Assembly (NCBI GenBank): GCA_048887225.1
Contig: JBHLJY010000040.1
Coordinates: 1-11,372 of the forward strand
Direction of reading: 5' to 3'
Length of the DNA stretch: 11,372 nucleotides
Source of the DNA: Candidatus Hodarchaeota archaeon
GTDB lineage: Archaea > Asgardarchaeota > Lokiarchaeia > Sigyniarchaeales > SOKP01
The notes beneath the pieces were generated by a model. The model was not told the DNA's origin and ran no database searches. It was given only the letters and a program-made list of their open reading frames with translations. The position numbers were made by a program, and so were the translations under genes. Below are positions 1,210-10,498 of this stretch, piece after piece. How positions within the stretch are numbered: position 1 is the stretch's first letter; each line of letters opens with the position of its first letter.

Positions 1210-2160
1210 TTAAACTGGTTCAAAGGCATTTATTTTTTCTAGGAAATCTAAAATTTTAAGGTATTTTTCGTCTTTTTTCCTAATTATTTCTTCTTCACTG
1301 CGTCCCTTGTACTCGTAAAATCCTTTAGAGGTCTTTATACCAAAATGGCCCTTCTCCACTTTATCTTTAATAATAGAAATATCCAAACCCATATTTTTGA
1401 TAACATCTGATATTACATCAAGTCCAACAAAATCCATGTTTTGAACTACTCCAACAAAAGGCAATCTTATGCTAAAACTAGTTTTTACTGCTAGATCAAT
1501 CTCTTCAGGTGTGGCAATCCCTCTCATTAAAAGACCAAATACAGCAGAATTGATTGCTTGTTGAATTTTATTAACGATAAAGGCATTTGTAAATTTTTTT
1601 AAAATGATTGGGGTTTTACCAAGTTTTTTTAACAAATTGAAAGATAAATCGATTATTTCTGGAGATGTTTTGCGCCCTGCCACTATTTCAACTAAAGGTA
1701 TTATGTGCGGCGGCCTGAACCAATGCTGTATTACCAACCTTTCAGGATTTTTCACATCAACAACTTTAAAAATATTTAATTCTGAAGTGTTGCTTGCTAA
1801 AATCGTATCTTCAGAACAATATTCATCTAATTGAGAGTATACTTTCCTTTTAATTTCACGACTTTCACTCACAGCCTCTACGATTAAGTTTGCCCTTCTC
1901 GCTGTGGTCTCAAGATTTGTTGAAGGATTGATACGATTTATAATAGCAGGAATTTCATTGTGAGGGACACGCTCATATTCAGCTAGTAGATCTAGATTTA
2001 ATTTGATTTTATTAATCGCGGAATTAAGTATTTCTTGCTTTAAATCAACTAAATCAACTTCAATTCCAGATTGAGCATAAACTTGTGCGATAGAATGCCC
2101 CATCGTGCCTGCTCCGACCACCAAAACTCGCTTTATATCATTTAACTTCAAAATCACCAC
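1210..2160 (-). CDS. 3-hydroxyacyl-CoA dehydrogenase family NAD-dependent oxidoreductase (carnitine/L-gulonate dehydrogenase-like branch)
   Basis: Rossmann motif VVGAGTMG with VLVD-type acidic residue (VDLVD), EAVSE, ASNTS, catalytic His-Glu pair in QHWFRPPHIIPLVE, and C-terminal G.KT.KGFY. The start could be GTG 2160, GTG 2157 or TTG 2151. Confidence 0.9.
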   Translation of the reverse strand: MVILKLNDIKRVLVVGAGTMGHSIAQVYAQSGIEVDLVDLKQEILNSAINKIKLNLDLLAEYERVPHNEIPAIINRINPSTNLETTARRANLIVEAVSESREIKRKVYSQLDEYCSEDTILASNTSELNIFKVVDVKNPERLVIQHWFRPPHIIPLVEIVAGRKTSPEIIDLSFNLLKKLGKTPIILKKFTNAFIVNKIQQAINSAVFGLLMRGIATPEEIDLAVKTSFSIRLPFVGVVQNMDFVGLDVISDVIKNMGLDISIIKDKVEKGHFGIKTSKGFYEYKGRSEEEIIRKKDEKYLKILDFLEKINAFEPV

Positions 2161-2203
2161 TTTTTAAACAAAAAATTTTAAATATAATAATAAAAAAAAT
2201 ACG

Positions 2204-3133
2204 TTATTTTAAACCTAATACTTCTTTGGCTTCATCAACAGTAGCAGGTTCTCTACCAATCTCACGGGCAATTCTTACCATCCGTTTAACTAGTTGAGCG
2301 TTACTCTTTACTGGTTCACCTTTTTGATAATATATCGTATCTTCCAGACCAGTTCTGATATTGCCTCCCATACACATTGCTATTACCGTCGTTCTAAGAT
2401 GATATCTGCTTATAGTTACTACTTGCCAAGTAGAACCTTCAGGGATTTTGTCAACCATATGAATTAAATTACTAACTGTGGCTGGTGCGCCACCTTGAAT
2501 ACCAAGTACGAGACTAAAATGAAGTTTTTCATCCTGCTCAAATATACCTAAATCAACTAAATCCATAATATTCTCAATGTGACTTATGTCATATGCTTCA
2601 ATTTCTATACCGGCCCCAATCTCTTTACATTTTTTAATATACTTTATATTAAAATCTATAGGATTATCGAAAATAAATGCTGTTTTCATACCTCTTGTAA
2701 CCGTTCTGAATTCAAAAGTACCAGCATTTATGGTAAACATATCAGGCTGTGGATTAATATTTAATAAGTTAAGTCTTTCGTCTAATGTGGCAAATCTAAG
2801 AGCTTGACCATATCTTTTACCTGTCTTACTTACCTTAACTCCATGTTCTAAACGGACGCCTATTCCATTACCTATTTGAGTAATAATGGGACATTTTTCT
2901 TTAATTAATTTCACAGTTTTGTTATAATATTTTAGTTCGGGAGTGGCCCATTCAGCATCGTCTCTTACATGGATGTGACATACAGCTGCACCTGCTTCAT
3001 AACACTCTAAAGCATCTCGTGCTTGTTCTTCTGCAGTTATAGGTAAATTTGGATTTGCCCATTTCCCATGAGCACCGCCTGTAATTGCAACAGTTATAAT
3101 TACTTTTTCATCAGTTAGAATATTTGGTTTCAC
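2204..3133 (-). CDS. BKACE / DUF849 beta-keto acid cleavage enzyme (3-keto-5-aminohexanoate cleavage enzyme family)
   Basis: IITVAITG, NPNLPIT.EE, metal-binding HxH (CHIHVRD), NIRTGLEDT with catalytic Arg and metal-ligand Glu, SNAQLV, GREPAT..EA. GTG start. Substrate not assignable, so kce is not used. Confidence 0.93.
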   Translation of the reverse strand: MKPNILTDEKVIITVAITGGAHGKWANPNLPITAEEQARDALECYEAGAAVCHIHVRDDAEWATPELKYYNKTVKLIKEKCPIITQIGNGIGVRLEHGVKVSKTGKRYGQALRFATLDERLNLLNINPQPDMFTINAGTFEFRTVTRGMKTAFIFDNPIDFNIKYIKKCKEIGAGIEIEAYDISHIENIMDLVDLGIFEQDEKLHFSLVLGIQGGAPATVSNLIHMVDKIPEGSTWQVVTISRYHLRTTVIAMCMGGNIRTGLEDTIYYQKGEPVKSNAQLVKRMVRIAREIGREPATVDEAKEVLGLK

Positions 3134-3276
3134 TTAAAGCACAGCTCAAATTAATAATTAAATTTTCAATTTTTTAATTTAATAATAATATAGTTTTAGT
3201 AAAAATATCATTAGTTTTTATTTTTCTGATTTCTGTTTAAATTCCTAATAAAAAAGGTTTAAAAAAAATTAAGGTT

Positions 3277-4407
3277 TTAAATTCTGCGAGGAGGAGGAAT
3301 TCTTATAATTCTTTCACCTTCAATCATGGATATGGCGTTTTCTGGGCAGAAATGCGCACATAAGCCACAACCTATACAATATTCTCCTACTCTTTCAGCT
3401 TTATTATCTTCATTCAATTGTATTGAGTCAAAATGACATTTTTCTATACATGTACCACATCCCACGCATAAATCTTGATTAAATTGCGATATATAGTTAG
3501 TCGCATTAATAGTAGGAAATCTGTGTCCTGATTGACCACAGCAACATTTACAGCAGTTGCATATGCTTGTCTCGTCTCTAGTAATATCGAATCCTGGATG
3601 ATATGCTTTATGAATCAATCCCGCCTCTTCTGCATCCTTTAGAATTTTTAACGCTTCCTCTTTTGAAACTAATCTTCCAAAACCATTTTCTGACACATGG
3701 CGAGCAGATTTTCCAAAAGTAAAACAATTCTCTCTAGCATCGGTCTGTTTACATGGATCACCCAATAAGTCATTATGATGCCTGCAAAAGCAATGTCCCA
3801 CAGCGATATCATCAAATTTATTTATGAGTTCTTCGACATTTTGCGTAGGTACAACTTTCTGTTCAGGGACTTCGATACTCTCATCAACGATAATTTCAAT
3901 ATCTTTCCCGGTCTCCTTATTTTTCAATATTGGAACTGTTCGATCAATTGGTCGCTGTTTTTGCATCATAGAAATTAACATATCGTAATTATTTTGAACG
4001 AGATCGCCTAATCCATCAAGTAATTTAGCAAATAAATTTGATAGCTTCTTATTTTCCTCAGAGAATACTAGTTTCTTCATAAAAGTATATTCAAATACAC
4101 CGACATTTATTAGTGGTAATAATCGATATACCATTACTCCTTGACGATTTGGTTGATTAAACATAACACCTTTCTTTGCTAAGGCTTCTGCTTTTTTCAA
4201 AATTTCATCTTCGGGCAATTTACTACTTTCTTTTAATTGTTCCATAGTTTGGGAAATTTTCCTTCTAAATGCTAAATTAATAAAATCTAACTCATCTTCA
4301 TTTATTATATACTTCAGAATTGTTAGTAATGTTTCATTTATAGGCAGAGGAGTTCCTCCAGCTTTATTAATTATACCTGCTGCTTTTTTATATTTTGCTT
4401 CTGACAT
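3277..4407 (-). CDS. 4Fe-4S dicluster protein with N-terminal winged-helix-like region and central Cys-rich domain, function unknown
   Basis: Two ferredoxin motifs, CVGCGTCIEKC and CIGCGLCAHFCP. Central HCFCR...C-x8-C...ICNCCKCCC. N-terminal 'MEQLKESSKLPEDEILKKAEALAKKGVMF' resembles a wHTH. Confidence 0.85.
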   Translation of the reverse strand: MSEAKYKKAAGIINKAGGTPLPINETLLTILKYIINEDELDFINLAFRRKISQTMEQLKESSKLPEDEILKKAEALAKKGVMFNQPNRQGVMVYRLLPLINVGVFEYTFMKKLVFSEENKKLSNLFAKLLDGLGDLVQNNYDMLISMMQKQRPIDRTVPILKNKETGKDIEIIVDESIEVPEQKVVPTQNVEELINKFDDIAVGHCFCRHHNDLLGDPCKQTDARENCFTFGKSARHVSENGFGRLVSKEEALKILKDAEEAGLIHKAYHPGFDITRDETSICNCCKCCCGQSGHRFPTINATNYISQFNQDLCVGCGTCIEKCHFDSIQLNEDNKAERVGEYCIGCGLCAHFCPENAISMIEGERIIRIPPPRRI

Positions 4408-4531
4408 CTTATTTTAAATTTTATTTTATTATATTAATACATTTTTCATATGACTTATATTTAGATCATAAGGGATTAAGACTAAAAAATAGTAAAAAAG
4501 GGAAAAAAAATAGAGATTTATGGGTTCTAAG

Positions 4532-5572
4532 TTAATTATGATTTAGGAAAGAAGCAGCTCTTTTTATGCTTTTCTCAGCACCGCGAACAATAGATTCAAT
4601 AATATCCGAAACACTATCGATACTACCAATCGCTCCGATACTTTGACCTAAAAGAACAGCACCGTCAGTAATGTTTCCATCATATATCATTTCATAATGC
4701 TTGCCATCTTCCAATAATTTTTCAATAGTTATGCCTTGTTCTTCAGCCAGCTTCTCTTCTTTGCTAGCAACGAGACCGTGATGCTCTGAATATTTATTTT
4801 TCCATAATCTAATTGGTCCTAAGAATCCTGTTACTAGTATTGTATCCTGAGCTTTTGCGGGAGGGACAATATTTTTGTAGGCTTCATGAAATTCACTTTC
4901 TTTTGAAGCAATAAATCTGGACCCCATGGCTATTGCCCCTGCTCCCATAGCTAAAGCAGCGGCAAGCCCATCACCAGTTGCAAATCCTCCACAAGCGATA
5001 ATAGGGAAATCTGGATATTTCTGCTTGACTTGCTGTAATAGAACTAATGTGCTTATTTTTTCATATGATTGGTGCCCTCCACCTTCACCTCCAGTTATTA
5101 CCATACCATCAACATTAGAAACAACGCACTTATCTGCAAGCCATAATGCGGGCGCAACATGAAAATGTTTTATATTTGAGCCACTCTCTTTTAATGCATC
5201 CCACGCTTTGCTTTTCATTAATTTCGACGATCCAGCACTCGTCAATGCGTATAAGCATTGTTCTTTAAGCTTTGGATTCTTCAATATAAATCTTGGGATT
5301 TTATTACATAATATTTTAGCATCTATTTGCAATCTTCCTGTTCGTATATTAAAACCAAAAGGTTTGTCAGTACGTTCAATTACCCACTCCATATCAGCTC
5401 TCATTTGATCAAGACTACTCTTGCCATACATGTTTGTATGACTTAAGATCCCCAAACCTCCTGCCTCAGAGACTGCTACACACAGTTCCTTAGTATAAAA
5501 AGGTCCCATAGGCGCAGCAACAATGGGATGCTTAATCCCAAACATTTCAGTAATTTGTGTTTTAATAACCAT
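4532..5572 (-). CDS. FMN-dependent nitronate monooxygenase / FabK-like enoyl-thioester reductase family protein
   Basis: T.ITEMFGIKHPIV.APM, AVSEAGGLGIL, TDKPFGFN, GGEGGGH (catalytic His), IACGGFATG, GAGAIAMGSRF..S.E, GQSIG. Confidence 0.9.
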   Translation of the reverse strand: MVIKTQITEMFGIKHPIVAAPMGPFYTKELCVAVSEAGGLGILSHTNMYGKSSLDQMRADMEWVIERTDKPFGFNIRTGRLQIDAKILCNKIPRFILKNPKLKEQCLYALTSAGSSKLMKSKAWDALKESGSNIKHFHVAPALWLADKCVVSNVDGMVITGGEGGGHQSYEKISTLVLLQQVKQKYPDFPIIACGGFATGDGLAAALAMGAGAIAMGSRFIASKESEFHEAYKNIVPPAKAQDTILVTGFLGPIRLWKNKYSEHHGLVASKEEKLAEEQGITIEKLLEDGKHYEMIYDGNITDGAVLLGQSIGAIGSIDSVSDIIESIVRGAEKSIKRAASFLNHN

Positions 5573-5773
5573 AATTCTTCATTTTTACTTTTGATTGTAA
5601 TTATAAATAATTTATAATTGAGAAAAATTAAGAGATCATAAAAAACTTTACAATGACGATCATCAATAATAGAAAAATTTTAAATTAAAATTTATTCATT
5701 GAATTTATTTATTACTTACAACTTATCTATTTAAATTACAGCTATTTAAAATAAGTTTAAAAGGTTGGAAAAA

Positions 5774-6943
5774 ATGGTTGATATTAAAAATGTTGTTGTA
5801 GTCGGTGCAGGCCAAATGGGTAATGGAATCGGCCAAGTGGCATTAATGGCTGGCTTCAACGTCACATTAGTTGATATTAAAGACGAATTTGTTGACAAAG
5901 GGTATGCTAAAATAGAAGAAGGTATGAAAAAACTTGAAGCTAAAGGTGCCTTAGGTGAGGGCGTAACAGCAGCTAATATTATGGCAAAATGTAAAAAGAC
6001 TTTAGATTTAGCATCAGCAGTGAAGGATGCGGATATAATTATTGAGGCTGTTATCGAGAATATGGACGTTAAAAAACAAGTTTTTAAAACTTGTGACGAA
6101 AATGCTCCTACCCATTGTATTATTGCCTCAAATACTTCTACAATGTCTATAACAGAAATGGCTACCGCAACCAATAGACAAGATAAATGTATTGGGATGC
6201 ACTTCTTTAATCCTGTACCTTTAATGAGGTGTATAGAAGTAATCTATGGTGGAAAAAGTTCTGATGAAAGTGTTAATGCTGGAATAAATTTTGCGGGTAA
6301 ATTACCTTGTCTCAGAGGCGAAAGATATATTGCAAAAGTATTAAAAGATAGACCAGGATTCATTGTAAATAGGGTAACTGCCCCTGTTCAAATATATCAA
6401 AATTATATATTTGATTTGGTTGCCGAAAAAGGTATTACTTGGGAACAACTTGATAATGATTCTGGTGGACCCATGCCTACGTGTGTATTAGCAGATTTCG
6501 TCGGTATTGATACATTATATCATGTACAGAATTATTATTCTAAGACTCTCTCACCTGAATTTGCACCTGGAAAAGTAATTACGAAAATGTTCAATGAAGG
6601 GAAGCTAGGAGCAAAAACTGGACAGGGATTTTATGATTGGTCTAAAGGGCGACCAAAACCAGATAAAAAGGCTGGAAAAGCGAGATTATTTAAACTTAAA
6701 TATCCAATAGCGATAATGATAAATGAGGGATGTAGAGTCTTAGAAGAAGGAATTACTACTAGTTGGAAAGTGATCGATGATGCTTTAATGGCTGGGATGA
6801 ATATGCCTGGTCCAATGCGTCCAAACCTTAAAACTTCTGAAAAACAAGTGGAAGTTTTAAATGAACTCGTAGAAATAACAGGTAAGACATATTTTAAACC
6901 AAGCGAGCTCTTGAAATCCGGAAAATGGGTTGATATGGAATAA
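5774..6943 (+). CDS. 3-hydroxyacyl-CoA dehydrogenase with a second, degenerate C-terminal 3HCDH domain
   Basis: VVGAGQMGNGI, IEAVIEN, ASNTS, GMHFFNP..LM..IE, KDRPGFIVNR, GKLG.KTGQGFY, then a repeat 'INEG..VLEEG......ID.A...G.N.PGP'. ATG 5774 is preferred over TTG 5765 because AAGGTTGG lies 5 nt upstream. Confidence 0.92.
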   Translation: MVDIKNVVVVGAGQMGNGIGQVALMAGFNVTLVDIKDEFVDKGYAKIEEGMKKLEAKGALGEGVTAANIMAKCKKTLDLASAVKDADIIIEAVIENMDVKKQVFKTCDENAPTHCIIASNTSTMSITEMATATNRQDKCIGMHFFNPVPLMRCIEVIYGGKSSDESVNAGINFAGKLPCLRGERYIAKVLKDRPGFIVNRVTAPVQIYQNYIFDLVAEKGITWEQLDNDSGGPMPTCVLADFVGIDTLYHVQNYYSKTLSPEFAPGKVITKMFNEGKLGAKTGQGFYDWSKGRPKPDKKAGKARLFKLKYPIAIMINEGCRVLEEGITTSWKVIDDALMAGMNMPGPMRPNLKTSEKQVEVLNELVEITGKTYFKPSELLKSGKWVDME

Positions 6944-7101
6944 TCCCCTTATAATTTTTTATAACTAATTAATCAATTCTTTTTTTTCCTTAATATCATT
7001 ACCTAAAAATAACGATTATTGCTTATAAAATCCTAACTAAAATTTTTTAAATGGATTATATTTTGTTATAATAAAGAATTTGTACTGTATATTCTTTTAA
7101 T

Positions 7102-9447
7102 ATGTCAGAGAAACTACTAAATGAGCTTGTACGAGAAACTCCACATCTTTCATTAACAGTTCCGTTGTGTTATACTAAAATTCTTAAGGAAACATATGGT
7201 AAACCAATGATAATAAGGCAGGCTGAAGGCTTGAAATACACACTTGAGAGCTTACCTATAATAATTAGACCAGATGAATTAATTGTTGGGACTTTTGACG
7301 AGAAAATTCCAGTAGCAATCCCTCGCCCAGAGGCAACTGGTCTTAGAATAATGAGAGAAATCGATATTTTATCTGAAAGGTTAGTAAATCCTATAAAGGT
7401 AAATGAAGAAGATATTAAGATAATGAAAGAAGAAATTGCTCCTTTTTATGAAAATTTCAGAGTACAAAGTTATGCTAATGAACTTGCTCCAAATCATGTC
7501 TTTGAGATTCTTTATCGCGGTTTAGCTTATATATCCACTGAAGCTGGTGGAATTGCTCATGCTGTTATTGATTATCAAAGACTTATTAAAATAGGATTAA
7601 TGAAATATCTAAAATTATCGGAGGAGAATATTAAAAAATATGAGCAGTTATTAGGAATTGAACCTCGAGCTGATGAGAAAATTGCTTTTTATAAGTCAAT
7701 GAAAGTAATAATAAAAGCTATTATAGATTTTGCCAAAAAATATAGTAAAAAAGCAACAGTAATGGCAAATCAAGAAACAGATCCTTCTCGAAAAAAAGAA
7801 TTATTAAGAATCGCAGAGACATGTAACAACGTACCAGAAAATCCTGCTTCAAACTTGCACGAGGCGATTCAGTTCGTATGGTTTATTCATATGATCCTTC
7901 ACATTGAGAATTTTGAGCATGGGATTTCTTTTGGAAGGTTAGACCAATATTTATTTCAATATTATAATGGTGATTCGGAAGAAGCTGTGCGTCTTTTTAA
8001 AAATCTCATATTGAAAACAAATGAAATAATTGCATTATATGATTCCTTCGCAACTCAATATTTTGGTGGCATGGCTACCACCCAATGTATAGTTATTGGT
8101 GGTATGGATGTAGAAGGAAATGATGTTTCTAACGAATTGACTTATTTAATTTTAGATGCTCACGAAGAAGCTTCAGTAGCTAGTCCAAATATTGTAATAA
8201 GATGTCATAGTGGAACGCCAAATAAACTCTACAGAAGAGTTACCAACATAATAGCAGATGGCAAAAATATCCTCGCTCTTTATAATGATGATGTTGCGAT
8301 TAAATGCCTTTTAACTCATAAAATTCCTATAGAAGATGCGAGAAATTATGGAATTGTAGGTTGTGTTGGGTTATCTACATCAGGCTTATCTTATGATAAT
8401 ACTGGTGCTATATTTCTTAGCTTACCAAAAGCATTGGAAATTACTTTAGGAACAGATACTACTCTAGTAAGTAAATATGTTGAGACGGCTATAGATCCAA
8501 AATCTTTCAAATCTATTGATGATGTTTTAGACGCATATAGGAAGAATCTCAAAATTATAATCGAAATGGCTGTTACTGCTGCTAATGCTTATCAACAAGC
8601 ACATATAGAACTAAAACCCACACCCCTAATGTCATTAAGTATTCGAGGATGTTTTGAGGAAGGCATTGACATAAACAAAGGTTCAGCCAAATATAATTTC
8701 TCTGGGATTCATGTAACAGGCTTATCAGATCTCGTTGATTCTCTAGCAGCTATAGATTATGCCGTCTTTAAAGAAAAGGTAATAACTATAGAACAGTTAA
8801 TTCATGCTTTGAGAAAAAATTTTCGAGGTAAGAAAGAACTAAGGAATTATTTACAAAATAGGTGCCCTAAATATGGATGCGATAATGATCACGTTGATAA
8901 TTACACTGAAAAAATAGGGAAAATTCTTGTAGACTCAGTTAAGGACTTGAAGTGTGCAAGAGGAGGAGAATATCGAGCAGGAATTCATGCTATGACAACT
9001 CACGTTGGCTTTGGTATATTTACTGGTGCTCTACCTTCAGGTAGGAAAAAAGGAGAAGCTTTGACGAAAGATATTGCTCCATCATCCAGGGGTGAGAAAG
9101 CACTTACTTCCGCAATTAATAGTGCTACAAAATTAGACCACTCTCTAATAACAAATGGTTTAGCTTGTACTCTTAATATTATTCCTGAAATCGCACGAAT
9201 GGATGATGGTAAAATCTTTGAAGCATTAATCAGAAGTTATTTTGAGCGAGGGGGTTTACATTTACAATTTAATGCGATTTCTTATAATACTCTTTTAGAT
9301 GCCCAACAAAATCCTGAAATATATGGCGACTTAATGATTCGGGTATCTGGATATAGCGCTAGATTTATCGATCTACCAAAATCAGTTCAAAATGAGATTA
9401 TTCAAAGCTATTTATATGAAAATTTAGAAATTCAAGCTTCAAAATAG
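7102..9447 (+). CDS. Glycyl radical enzyme (PFL2/eliminase-type architecture, single-Cys loop), divergent, substrate unknown
   Basis: I...ELIVG, GISFGRLDQY, Cys loop IVGCVG (Cys421, nt 8362-8364), PKYG, A.PSGR, HLQFN, and glycyl loop RVSGYS (Gly750, nt 9349-9351). No CC pair, so not a canonical pyruvate formate-lyase. Confidence 0.93.
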   Translation: MSEKLLNELVRETPHLSLTVPLCYTKILKETYGKPMIIRQAEGLKYTLESLPIIIRPDELIVGTFDEKIPVAIPRPEATGLRIMREIDILSERLVNPIKVNEEDIKIMKEEIAPFYENFRVQSYANELAPNHVFEILYRGLAYISTEAGGIAHAVIDYQRLIKIGLMKYLKLSEENIKKYEQLLGIEPRADEKIAFYKSMKVIIKAIIDFAKKYSKKATVMANQETDPSRKKELLRIAETCNNVPENPASNLHEAIQFVWFIHMILHIENFEHGISFGRLDQYLFQYYNGDSEEAVRLFKNLILKTNEIIALYDSFATQYFGGMATTQCIVIGGMDVEGNDVSNELTYLILDAHEEASVASPNIVIRCHSGTPNKLYRRVTNIIADGKNILALYNDDVAIKCLLTHKIPIEDARNYGIVGCVGLSTSGLSYDNTGAIFLSLPKALEITLGTDTTLVSKYVETAIDPKSFKSIDDVLDAYRKNLKIIIEMAVTAANAYQQAHIELKPTPLMSLSIRGCFEEGIDINKGSAKYNFSGIHVTGLSDLVDSLAAIDYAVFKEKVITIEQLIHALRKNFRGKKELRNYLQNRCPKYGCDNDHVDNYTEKIGKILVDSVKDLKCARGGEYRAGIHAMTTHVGFGIFTGALPSGRKKGEALTKDIAPSSRGEKALTSAINSATKLDHSLITNGLACTLNIIPEIARMDDGKIFEALIRSYFERGGLHLQFNAISYNTLLDAQQNPEIYGDLMIRVSGYSARFIDLPKSVQNEIIQSYLYENLEIQASK

Positions 9448-9503
9448 TAATTTTGAATTAAGTAATAATATTATTTAATTTTATATTTTATTTAAGATAT
9501 TTA

Positions 9504-9511
9504 GAGATGAT
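9504..9511 (+). promoter_or_regulatory. Putative ribosome-binding site GAGATGAT for the MDR gene
   Basis: One mismatch from the archaeal-type consensus GAGGTGAT, 6 nt upstream of ATT at 9518. Confidence 0.45.
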
Positions 9512-9517
9512 TAAACT

Positions 9518-10498
9518 ATTAAGGCAGCTGTTTTTGAAGATATAAAAAAAATTGTTTATAGAGAGGATTATCCTAAACCAGTCGCTAGTCCGAATGATGC
9601 AATAATTAAAGTTCATTATTGTGGCATATGTGGAAGTGATGTGAGTAATTTTAAGTATAAAATCTACCAAACTCCGATTATAATGGGCCATGAATTTGCG
9701 GGAGAAGTTGTAGAAATTGGCGAAAATATTTCCAAAGCAAAAATAAGTGATAGAGTTGCGTGTATAAATGTTTCAACAGACGTAAGCGGAGGTCAATTAA
9801 AAGGATTGGGAATCTTCCAAAATGGTGGATTCGCTGAATATGTTAGAGTTCCAAAAAAATTTTTATTTCCAATTCCTAAAAATGTTTTAATTAAGGATGC
9901 TATTATGATCGAATCTTTTGCGAATGCAACAAGGGCTATGAAATTGTCGAAAATAAAAGAAAATCAAAATATTGCGATAATTGGAGGGGGAAATATTGGA
10001 TTGACCTTTCTTAAAACGTTCTTAATTGAAAAAAAACCTAACTATGTTATTGTTATTGAACCTCACGAATTTTTAAGAGAAAAAGCAAAAAAAATTGGCG
10101 CAACTGATGCTTTTCCCCCGAGCAAGGTGAAAATTAAAAAATTCATTAAAGCCAATGGAGAACCAACTTTTATTTTTGATTGTGTTGGAATTGAAAAGAC
10201 CTTAATAATGGCAGTGGAAATCATTAAAAGAGGGGGGACAATATTATTGGAGGGTATTCAAAGAGGAAATATTTTATTTCCTATGTTTATGATAAATTCT
10301 AAGGAAATTAATTTAAAAGGATGCTTAGGTCATGACAAACAAGATATTCTAGCAGCCATTGATTTATTTGGTAAAGGTAAGGTAGATGCTAACGAATTTA
10401 TTTCTGAAGTTGTACAGTTGAAAGATATACAAAAAGCTTTTGAGAAATTTCTCGAGCCTGGTGAGAGAAAATTTGTTAAAATTTTAATTGAGATATAA
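9518..10498 (+). CDS. Zn-dependent medium-chain dehydrogenase (MDR, threonine/sorbitol dehydrogenase-like), 326 aa; true start is 41 codons upstream of the ORF-track call
   Basis: The frame is open from just after TAA 9512-9514 and reads (I/M)KAAVFEDIKKIVYREDYPKP...IIKVHYCGICGSD, then GHEFAGEV, GGFAEY, IES, GGGNIG, VIEP, KILI. The catalytic Cys38 lies upstream of the GTG at 9641. Confidence 0.88.
   Translation: MKAAVFEDIKKIVYREDYPKPVASPNDAIIKVHYCGICGSDVSNFKYKIYQTPIIMGHEFAGEVVEIGENISKAKISDRVACINVSTDVSGGQLKGLGIFQNGGFAEYVRVPKKFLFPIPKNVLIKDAIMIESFANATRAMKLSKIKENQNIAIIGGGNIGLTFLKTFLIEKKPNYVIVIEPHEFLREKAKKIGATDAFPPSKVKIKKFIKANGEPTFIFDCVGIEKTLIMAVEIIKRGGTILLEGIQRGNILFPMFMINSKEINLKGCLGHDKQDILAAIDLFGKGKVDANEFISEVVQLKDIQKAFEKFLEPGERKFVKILIEI

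Follow-up and report, generated by a model that had tools for sequence, protein, structure and literature searches.

A glycyl radical enzyme of an Asgard archaeon with a GCVG cysteine loop: a candidate new subfamily with recurrent beta-keto acid cleavage enzyme neighbours

Background

Glycyl radical enzymes (GREs) with new chemistries have largely been discovered via clades whose active-site motifs depart from those of the known classes. The present analysis concerns a GRE gene of a Candidatus Hodarchaeota archaeon, located on an 11,372-bp stretch of DNA (GenBank assembly GCA_048887225.1, contig JBHLJY010000040.1), which is referred to below as the window and represents an entire contig (C40) from a genome of 3.27 Mb (98% completeness). 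The closest described systems of the encoded protein (P0001) are PFL2/PflD of Archaeoglobus fulgidus (AfPFL2; structure 2f3o) and B12-independent glycerol dehydratase (GD; 1r8w). AfPFL2 has been proposed to be a glycerol dehydratase or a methylalkylsuccinate synthase (MASS). In GD, glycerol is bound by H164, S282, Y339, E435, D447 and Y640, a set of residues reportedly listed by O'Brien et al. in 2004. Benzylsuccinate synthase (BSS) carries Ser, and no Glu, two positions after the catalytic Cys (Cys+2) and possesses a fumarate-binding Arg508 after its Cys loop. A 2026 review describes the role of AfPFL2 as a matter of continuing debate, lists no archaeal GRE resembling pyruvate formate-lyase (PFL) with an assigned function, and states that a CXE motif, the Glu of which is hydrogen-bonded to the substrate, is common to all GRE eliminases and isomerases (PMC13450708). 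An earlier reading of the window from its sequence alone (the sequence-only reading) knew of no characterised GRE with Gly at Cys+2. Among Asgard archaea, PFL-like GREs of Hermodarchaeota have been read as alkyl-/benzylsuccinate synthases on a single-Cys criterion (PMC8163825), and 2-oxoacid-formate lyases have been assigned to an Asgard archaeon (Imachi et al. 2020; PMC7015854).

The best explanation of the data presented below, with a probability of roughly 0.55, is that P0001 is a competent GRE of a distinct subfamily, which would act as a radical lyase on an anionic hydroxy compound and feed a dehydrogenase/beta-keto acid cleavage enzyme (BKACE) route, its gene having been inserted into the locus and its activation taking place in trans. 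Both the substrate and the chemistry of this subfamily are probably new. Fresh findings are the GRE insertion of approximately 2.5 kb, the absence of an activase gene from the contig, and the adjacency of GRE and BKACE genes in four gene orders.

Results and discussion

The GRE gene and its active-site loops

The GRE gene and its main features, with coordinates in the window, are as follows:

7102..9447, + strand: GRE of 781 amino acids (P0001), member of the GCVG clade (PF02901 and PF01228; E 1.7e-22)
8350..8376, + strand: Cys loop G-I-V-G-C421-V-G423-L-S (GGA ATT GTA GGT TGT GTT GGG TTA TCT)
9340..9357, + strand: Gly loop R-V-S-G750-Y-S, the glycyl radical site, with Gly750 at 9349-9351
9406..9408, + strand: Ser769, in place of the Arg that ends the fingerprint of the glycyl radical domain (...Qx2[IV]x2R), based on clade comparison

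The Cys loop was found exactly where the sequence-only reading had placed it, in frame with the open reading frame, and the Gly loop that it had called intact was indeed present. Cys421 is encoded at 8362-8364 and Gly423, which occupies the place of the CxE Glu, by GGG at 8368-8370. In HMMER alignments, Cys421 pairs with the catalytic Cys and Gly423 with the Glu of both 1r8w and 2f3o (C433 and E435 in GD). The GRE-superfamily fingerprint RVxG[FWY], comprising the radical Gly, is represented by R747-V-S-G750-Y. An AF2 model of P0001 (pLDDT 92.9, pTM 0.93) displayed a TM score of 0.94 to both 2f3o and 1r8w, a hairpin at residues 416-419 and 423-426 (the Cys finger loop), and a strand at residues 623-628; alignment and model together place a finger-loop Cys opposite the Gly loop within the 10-stranded barrel fold. 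Judged from sequence and model, the radical machinery of P0001 (Gly750, Cys421 and the overall fold) is intact.

Conservation and phylogeny of the GCVG clade

A search of 5.8 billion proteins retrieved about 110 homologues with 49-88% identity to P0001, of which 108 carry GC[VI]G and two GCVS; the next matches, with at most 47% identity, carry GCVE together with RVAGY. The Cys loop is conserved in 98 of the 100 full-length clade members. P0004, a protein from an independent assembly that is 88% identical to P0001, also carries GCVG. The codon equivalent to that of Gly423 is GGA, GGG or GGC in 14 genome loci, and GGT occurs as well among about 30 metagenome loci, GGA being the commonest. In an exhaustive search of 1.84 billion 50%-identity representatives, one entry (811 bits) covered the whole clade, and the entry that followed scored 615 bits. 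The distinct C-V-G cluster with varied Gly codons that the sequence-only reading had looked for as support thus exists, with all four codons. Close homologues with GCVE, or a place inside a characterised GRE class, either of which it regarded as fatal to its proposal, were not encountered; no curated equivalog model was passed, and the nearest solved proteins are AfPFL2 (39% identity) and GD (32%).

A midpoint-rooted tree (FastTree, LG+gamma) comprised 23 members of the clade, 9 neighbours with GCVE and those 69 of the representatives P0123-P0199 that are 740-900 amino acids long, shorter and longer ones being left out. The GCVG/GCVS clade was monophyletic (support 1.0), its stem measuring 0.36 substitutions per site, and was nested in a supported (1.0) GCVE group related to AfPFL2, together with P0114-P0122, P0123 and P0129, of which P0117 matches 2f3o at 861 bits; the branches that decide on its immediate sister had supports of only 0.0-0.4. 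As the clade lies inside the GCVE background of the AfPFL2 group, the loss of Glu is, on this tree, derived and a single event. It is not unique to the clade, since, among the 150 representatives (50% identity) nearest to P0001, about 25 have no Glu at Cys+2, three of them being other, unrelated CxG clusters; among the sequences of uncharacterised GREs, its loss is not rare. The proposal of a candidate new GRE class was supported at the level of sequence, phylogeny and gene context; the missing Glu proved to be less exceptional, and the different chemistry deduced from it is still conjectural.

The clade occurs mainly in Asgard (Promethearchaeota-type) archaea, with Archaeoglobi-like genomes and 'Geothermarchaeum' as outliers, and the homologue names, where present, point to metagenome-assembled genomes (MAGs) of Promethearchaeota, Thor-, Hermod- and Heimdallarchaeota. 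A clade GRE was present in 13 of the 61 genomes of the family sample; outside that family, none scored above 800 bits in a 151-genome sample of the phylum.

Comparison with known GREs

The nearest solved structure is that of AfPFL2 (611 bits, 39% identity, TM 0.94, rmsd 1.9 Å). Both proteins are archaeal, have a single Cys after Gly, share His153, an E-N-x-E motif and a G-x-x-x-M-T-T strand, and belong to the same supported tree group. Unlike the clade, AfPFL2 has GCVE, with Asp and Tyr still present at the positions of GD D447 and Y640, respectively, and Gln at that of His273; Arg625 and Asp432 are also lacking from the GCVE sister clade. P0001 marginally passed TIGR01774, the model of the PFL2/glycerol dehydratase subfamily (686.2 bits versus a cut-off of 678.2). 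GD and 1,2-propanediol dehydratase (PD; 5i2a, 9rco) share the fold (TM 0.93-0.94; 31-32% identity) and the aligned Cys and Gly, and His164 of GD is conserved as His153 in P0001. In contrast, E435, D447, S282, Y339 and Y640 of GD are replaced by Gly, Gly, Gly, Thr and His, respectively, and an Arg is gained, so that of the glycerol-binding set only H164 is kept (the other positions being G274, T327, G423, G435 and H629).

Similarly, CutC, HypD, HpyG/HpzG, IslA/IseG, HpsG/HpfG, HplG, YbiW and bacterial PflD have the same PFL2-type architecture (26-31% identity), but all CXE eliminases and isomerases retain the Glu (PMC13450708), whereas C421-V-G423 replaces the motif of the 1,2-eliminases and isomerases (GD, PD, CutC, HypD, IslA, HpsG, HplG, YbiW and PflD) throughout the clade. 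The equivalog models for HypD, CutC and the sulfopropanediol dehydratases gave 400-454 bits, compared with cut-offs of 1000-1109. The predicted anion-binding Arg of the clade recalls the Arg/Arg/Gln site with which C-S lyases bind sulfonates, and also the sites for phosphate in YbiW and PflD (PMC13450708).

The X-succinate synthases (BSS, 4pkc and 4pkf; MASS, 9o8u) also possess a single Cys but are only 24-25% identical to P0001, their alpha subunits scoring 219-243 bits versus 611 for AfPFL2, and the pocket of P0001 is polar, not hydrophobic. The residue at Cys+15, the counterpart of Arg508 of BSS by spacing alone and not by alignment, is Ala436. No small Fe-S accessory subunit was found among the neighbours identified in the window and about 60 related loci, a survey that included no dedicated search and no systematic scan of open reading frames below about 60 amino acids. 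Regarding PFL, the Cys-Cys dyad is replaced by G420-C421, TIGR01255 gave 114.9 bits against a cut-off of 994, and the match to Escherichia coli PFL amounted to 85 bits. By these sequence comparisons, P0001 is neither a PFL nor a canonical CxE eliminase, nor, by overall similarity, a succinate synthase.

A remodelled active site

The GD pocket was mapped onto P0001 by sequence, and residues were counted in 100 clade sequences and in nine sequences of the GCVE sister clade, a set of AfPFL2-related proteins to which AfPFL2 itself does not belong. Four segments of the pocket are involved:

7558..7560, + strand: His153, equivalent to GD His164, retained in 100/100 clade and 9/9 sister-clade sequences
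7918..7923, + strand: His273-Gly274, equivalent to GD His281-Ser282; His273 is clade-specific, the sister clade having Gln
8395..8406, + strand: Asp432-Asn433-Thr434-Gly435, in the strand after the Cys loop; Gly435 is equivalent to GD Asp447, and the sister clade has T-S-S-D
8974..8988, + strand: Arg625-Ala-Gly-Ile-His629; Arg625 is gained (Ile in the sister clade), and His629 is equivalent to GD Tyr640 (Tyr in the sister clade)

In addition, Thr327 (GD Y339) corresponds to Asn, Gly423 (GD E435) to Glu, and the clade-specific Ser749 to Ala in the sister clade, and the Cys loop contains a hydroxyl-rich stretch L-S-T-S (G-L-S-T-S-G), compared with L-A-P-F in the sister clade. Each of these changes is at least 95% conserved within the clade. 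The residues that the sequence-only reading had put forward as possible substitutes for the Glu (His153, His273, Thr327, Asp432-Asn-Thr and His629) do align with the GD pocket, with the same degree of conservation, and mostly differ from the GCVE sister clade. Overall, the clade has lost two acidic residues and acquired an Arg, two histidines and several side chains that carry a hydroxyl group. This exchange suggests that the substrate is probably anionic and hydroxylated, for instance a carboxylate, possibly a phosphate or sulfonate ester, and that a different residue would handle the proton.

Gene contexts across the clade and the link with BKACE

The gene contexts were surveyed in about 60 clade loci. 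A BKACE gene was located within approximately 4 kb of the GRE gene in four gene orders, the first of which is that of the window. The second reads HCDH2-BKACE-x-x-GRE-MFS_2 (L056, L085, L087, L088 and the P0014 contig), HCDH2 being a protein of the 3-hydroxyacyl-CoA dehydrogenase (HCDH) family, a homologue of which is encoded upstream of BKACE-GRE in L085, L087 and L088. The third reads AFOR / LarA-like-GRE-activase-HCDH-BKACE-amino-acid permease (L027 and L031, Archaeoglobi-like), and the fourth MtaA-like-corrinoid protein-BKACE-GRE (L032 and L114, the GCVS lineage). All GRE-linked BKACEs fell into one clade (support 1.0), apart from other Asgard paralogue groups, in a limited sampling that comprised no bacterial sequences. 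The genome to which the window belongs contains only two BKACE genes. Within the family, a BKACE of at least 60% identity was found in 13 of 13 GRE-positive versus 27 of 48 GRE-negative genomes, which are related and not independent. No relevant report on the GRE-BKACE link or the GCVG clade was retrieved from the literature, a preprint on Hodarchaeales microcompartments being unrelated.

Hydroxyacid-related genes recur as well. A LarA-type hydroxyacid racemase/epimerase, below the equivalog cut-offs, is encoded in L027, L031, L017 and L093; its stop codon overlaps the GRE open frame in L027, and the gene abuts the GRE gene in L031. AFOR occurs near the GRE in L017, L027 and L031, and MFS_2 transporters are recurrent neighbours too. 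A sulfatase and an esterase accompany an altronate/galactarate-type dehydratase in L017. In L032 (861-5994), of the GCVS lineage, a MtaA/CmuA-family methyltransferase, a methyltransferase-type corrinoid protein (best matches MtgC and MtbC), BKACE and the GRE follow one another; this order hints at a methylated substrate (a quaternary amine or methoxy compound) in that lineage.

About half of the loci display a syntenic order ELP3 / one or two unknown genes / GRE / [activase] / GatE-GatD. Directly upstream of the GRE in this context, one or two tandem paralogous proteins of about 360 amino acids are encoded (L020:7266-8381 and 8746-9816; also L019, L021-L023, L025, L089, L094, L097, L102, L106 and L108). 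They have no Pfam match and no Cys motifs, and share a conserved N-terminal 'QQTISISPALK' segment, which may be RHH-like.

Neighbouring genes and insertion of the GRE gene

The GRE gene of the window is surrounded by the following features:

1210..2160, - strand: second HCDH-family protein, HCDH1 (family profiles)
2204..3133, - strand: BKACE of the GRE-associated subfamily (family profiles and tree)
3277..4407, - strand: Cys-rich protein of 376 amino acids with a C-terminal 2x[4Fe-4S] ferredoxin domain, the only part that matches a family
4532..5572, - strand: NMO/FabK-like FMN oxidoreductase (family profiles)
5765..6943, + strand: HCDH-family protein HCDH2, directly upstream of the GRE (family profiles)
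7019..9494, no strand: approximate GRE insertion, absent from the same-genus genome G176, whose homology extends to about 7018 and is clear again from about 9495
9518..10498, + strand: Zn-dependent MDR alcohol dehydrogenase (Zn-ADH), directly downstream of the GRE, with an apparent ATT start

In G176, the order 2TM / ADH / HCDH2 / NMO-like / Fe-S protein / BKACE / HCDH1 was found without a GRE, the ADH gene following HCDH2 directly. Another same-genus genome (G163) has the same cluster, also without HCDH2 and with no GRE. Moreover, the GRE of the window and the clade GRE of another genome of the genus have 66% identity, compared with 88% for the BKACEs of the same pair. As G176 is collinear without the GRE and the GRE is the less similar of the two proteins, the GRE gene is read as an insertion of approximately 2.5 kb from another lineage into an existing BKACE cluster. 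The base composition was uninformative as a sign of transfer, the GC content and GC3 of the GRE gene equalling those of its neighbours. A target duplication flanking the insertion is not claimed, the right-hand similarity being weak and AT-rich. Across 14 genome loci, synteny of the GRE with the neighbours that it has in the window was not conserved, except in one Archaeoglobus MAG. The cluster HCDH1/BKACE/Fe-S protein/NMO-like, divergent from HCDH2/ADH (all within 1210-6943 and 9518-10498), is kept without a GRE in genomes of the genus (L062 and L063) and gives the impression of a self-contained module, in which a beta-hydroxy or beta-keto acid would be broken down.

Activases and GRE paralogues

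The genome contains six GRE paralogues and two activases (on contigs C17 and C4), each next to or near another GRE; contig C40 contains no activase gene. In 11 clade loci, a GRE-type activase is encoded directly downstream of the GRE (TIGR02494 passed at 345 bits), and these clade-linked activases carry extra ferredoxin-like clusters. No orthologue of them was identified in the genome of the window, where the best match reached only 39-46% identity and no partner was assigned. Some loci of the ELP3/GatE context (L097 and L100) keep an activase gene between those of the GRE and GatE; the many orphan copies in Asgard archaea thus seem to have lost their activase secondarily. One GRE paralogue of the genome (L013; G000:C17:35861-38092) has the Cys loop G-C-V-Y-I-E, with Tyr at Cys+2, and is located directly upstream of the activase at C17:38167-39030.

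Putative function and alternative explanations

The proposed subfamily would descend from a GCVE ancestor common to the AfPFL2 group. Arg625, the histidines and the Ser/Thr loop would bind an anionic hydroxylated substrate, from which the Cys421 thiyl radical would abstract a hydrogen atom; proton handling may pass from Glu to a His or to Asp432, and His153 (GD His164) may still protonate the leaving group. The reaction would most likely be a 1,2-elimination giving a carbonyl product. This product could be a beta-keto acid for BKACE, a compound to which the 3-hydroxyacyl-type dehydrogenases would provide a parallel route, or an aldehyde on which AFOR or the adjacent Zn-ADH would act. In the BKACE step, the beta-keto acid and acetyl-CoA would be converted into an acyl-CoA and acetoacetate. 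The gene would have been acquired by insertion into the existing BKACE cluster, and the enzyme would be activated in trans by one of the two activases encoded elsewhere in the genome. A speculative and on balance improbable version is that a 2,3-dihydroxy acid or an aldonate is eliminated to a beta-keto acid, a reaction that would bring BKACE, the sugar-acid genes and the LarA-type C2 epimerase under one explanation. Tentatively, and at odds well below even, the GCVG clade may represent the first archaeal-centred functional class of GREs, performing a Glu-independent radical reaction new to GREs on an anionic hydroxy compound (e.g. a 2,3-dihydroxy acid or aldonate giving a beta-keto acid), the product of which would be channelled to a dedicated BKACE subfamily.

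Several observations weigh against a radical lyase that feeds BKACE. The Glu that the clade lacks is used by all characterised GRE eliminases (PMC13450708), so that elimination may not apply. The pocket side-chain positions come from sequence alignment to GD, not from coordinates. The ELP3/GatE surroundings of about half of the loci are a housekeeping context, uninformative and devoid of BKACE, and the distribution of the BKACE subfamily extends far beyond that of the GRE, which it does not need. Other loci point to different substrate classes, namely a ROK kinase with phosphoglucomutase in L034, DeoC on the P0014 contig, and the corrinoid methyltransferase pair mentioned above. Finally, the fingerprint Arg769, present in 95% of the clade, is Ser in P0001. 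As Ser is also found in P0004, and Ala in P0005-P0007, this is a trait of a sub-lineage and not an oddity of a single sequence.

Non-eliminase chemistry on an anionic substrate (by a decarboxylase, isomerase or C-C lyase), with the BKACE neighbourhood reflecting shared regulation or a common carbon source, is unlikely. It would fit the loss of the eliminase base and the heterogeneous gene contexts, and phenylacetate decarboxylase also lacks the Glu, depending on an essential Gln484. Nevertheless, the nearest relatives all belong to the eliminase/isomerase branch, the acid His153 is kept, and the decarboxylase models scored lower (242-310 bits). Rather less probable is GD/PD chemistry on a small neutral diol, in which His629, His273 or Asp432 would replace the Glu base. 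No characterised structures are closer than those of GD and PD (32% and 31% identity; TM 0.94), His164 of GD is retained as His153, and an aldehyde product would suit the downstream Zn-ADH of the window and the AFOR of L017, L027 and L031; yet the other GD pocket residues are replaced (H281 being matched by His273), only H164 being retained throughout, a conserved Arg has been gained in a pocket with a hydroxyl-rich loop, no GD or PD equivalog score was reached, and the contexts comprise BKACE, LarA or transporter genes and not those of diol utilisation or microcompartments.

The annotations in use fare worse. Asgard reconstructions call such genes pyruvate/2-oxoacid formate-lyases or alkylsuccinate synthases; the former assignment fails its defining test here, and the latter is poorly supported. 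Fumarate addition by an alkyl-/benzylsuccinate synthase, as put forward for GREs of Hermodarchaeota and for A. fulgidus PflD, is very doubtful. The single Cys after Gly is the feature used for that assignment (PMC8163825), the residue at Cys+2 is small (Ser in the two GCVS members), and the activases of relatives carry the extra ferredoxin-like clusters, but the low similarity to BSS and MASS compared with AfPFL2, the polar, His/Arg-rich pocket, the lack of a BSS-type small subunit among the neighbours identified (no specific search having been made), and neighbours that are sugar-acid, hydroxyacid and BKACE genes instead of genes for alkylsuccinate processing argue against it. A pyruvate or 2-oxoacid formate-lyase, in line with most database names (source names of the homologues include 'formate C-acetyltransferase') and with the Asgard assignment (PMC7015854), is highly improbable given the missing dyad and the PFL scores (115 versus 994 bits for TIGR01255; 85 bits for the E. 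coli enzyme). Finally, a sequencing or assembly error at the Gly423 codon, or a decaying pseudogene, is effectively refuted. GGG is one transition from GAG, no activase is encoded on the contig, and P0001 departs from the clade consensus at seven of 247 conserved sites, Arg769 included. However, Gly is found in more than 100 sequences with four codons, the open reading frame is intact, and the departures are mostly conservative and common to the 88%-identical P0004.

A Glu-independent functional class of the tentative kind described above, with its product channelled to BKACE, would open a new radical entry into CoA metabolism in Asgard archaea and Archaeoglobi. The clade is well defined by its derived Glu loss, co-varying pocket changes and dedicated activases, and the BKACE subfamily and hydroxyacid-related neighbours provide a concrete pathway lead that makes substrate screening tractable.

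Additional features of the window

The 376-amino-acid Fe-S protein contains the Cys clusters HCFC...C...C and CNCCKCCC, and its N-terminal domain has no family match. It was considered as an activase and rejected, as it has no radical-SAM motif. Clade GREs have Fer4-domain proteins of comparable length as neighbours in two other cases, namely a tblastn match in L103 and the products of two genes (363 and 354 amino acids) of the P0014 contig. The N-terminus of the Zn-ADH (KAAVFED...HYCGICGSD) is complete and in frame from ATT at 9518, just after a TAA (window 9507-9660), with no ATG, GTG or TTG ahead of 9641. As ATT-AAG-GCA-GCT is also conserved in the same-genus genome G176, this ATT is likely a genuine non-canonical start codon.

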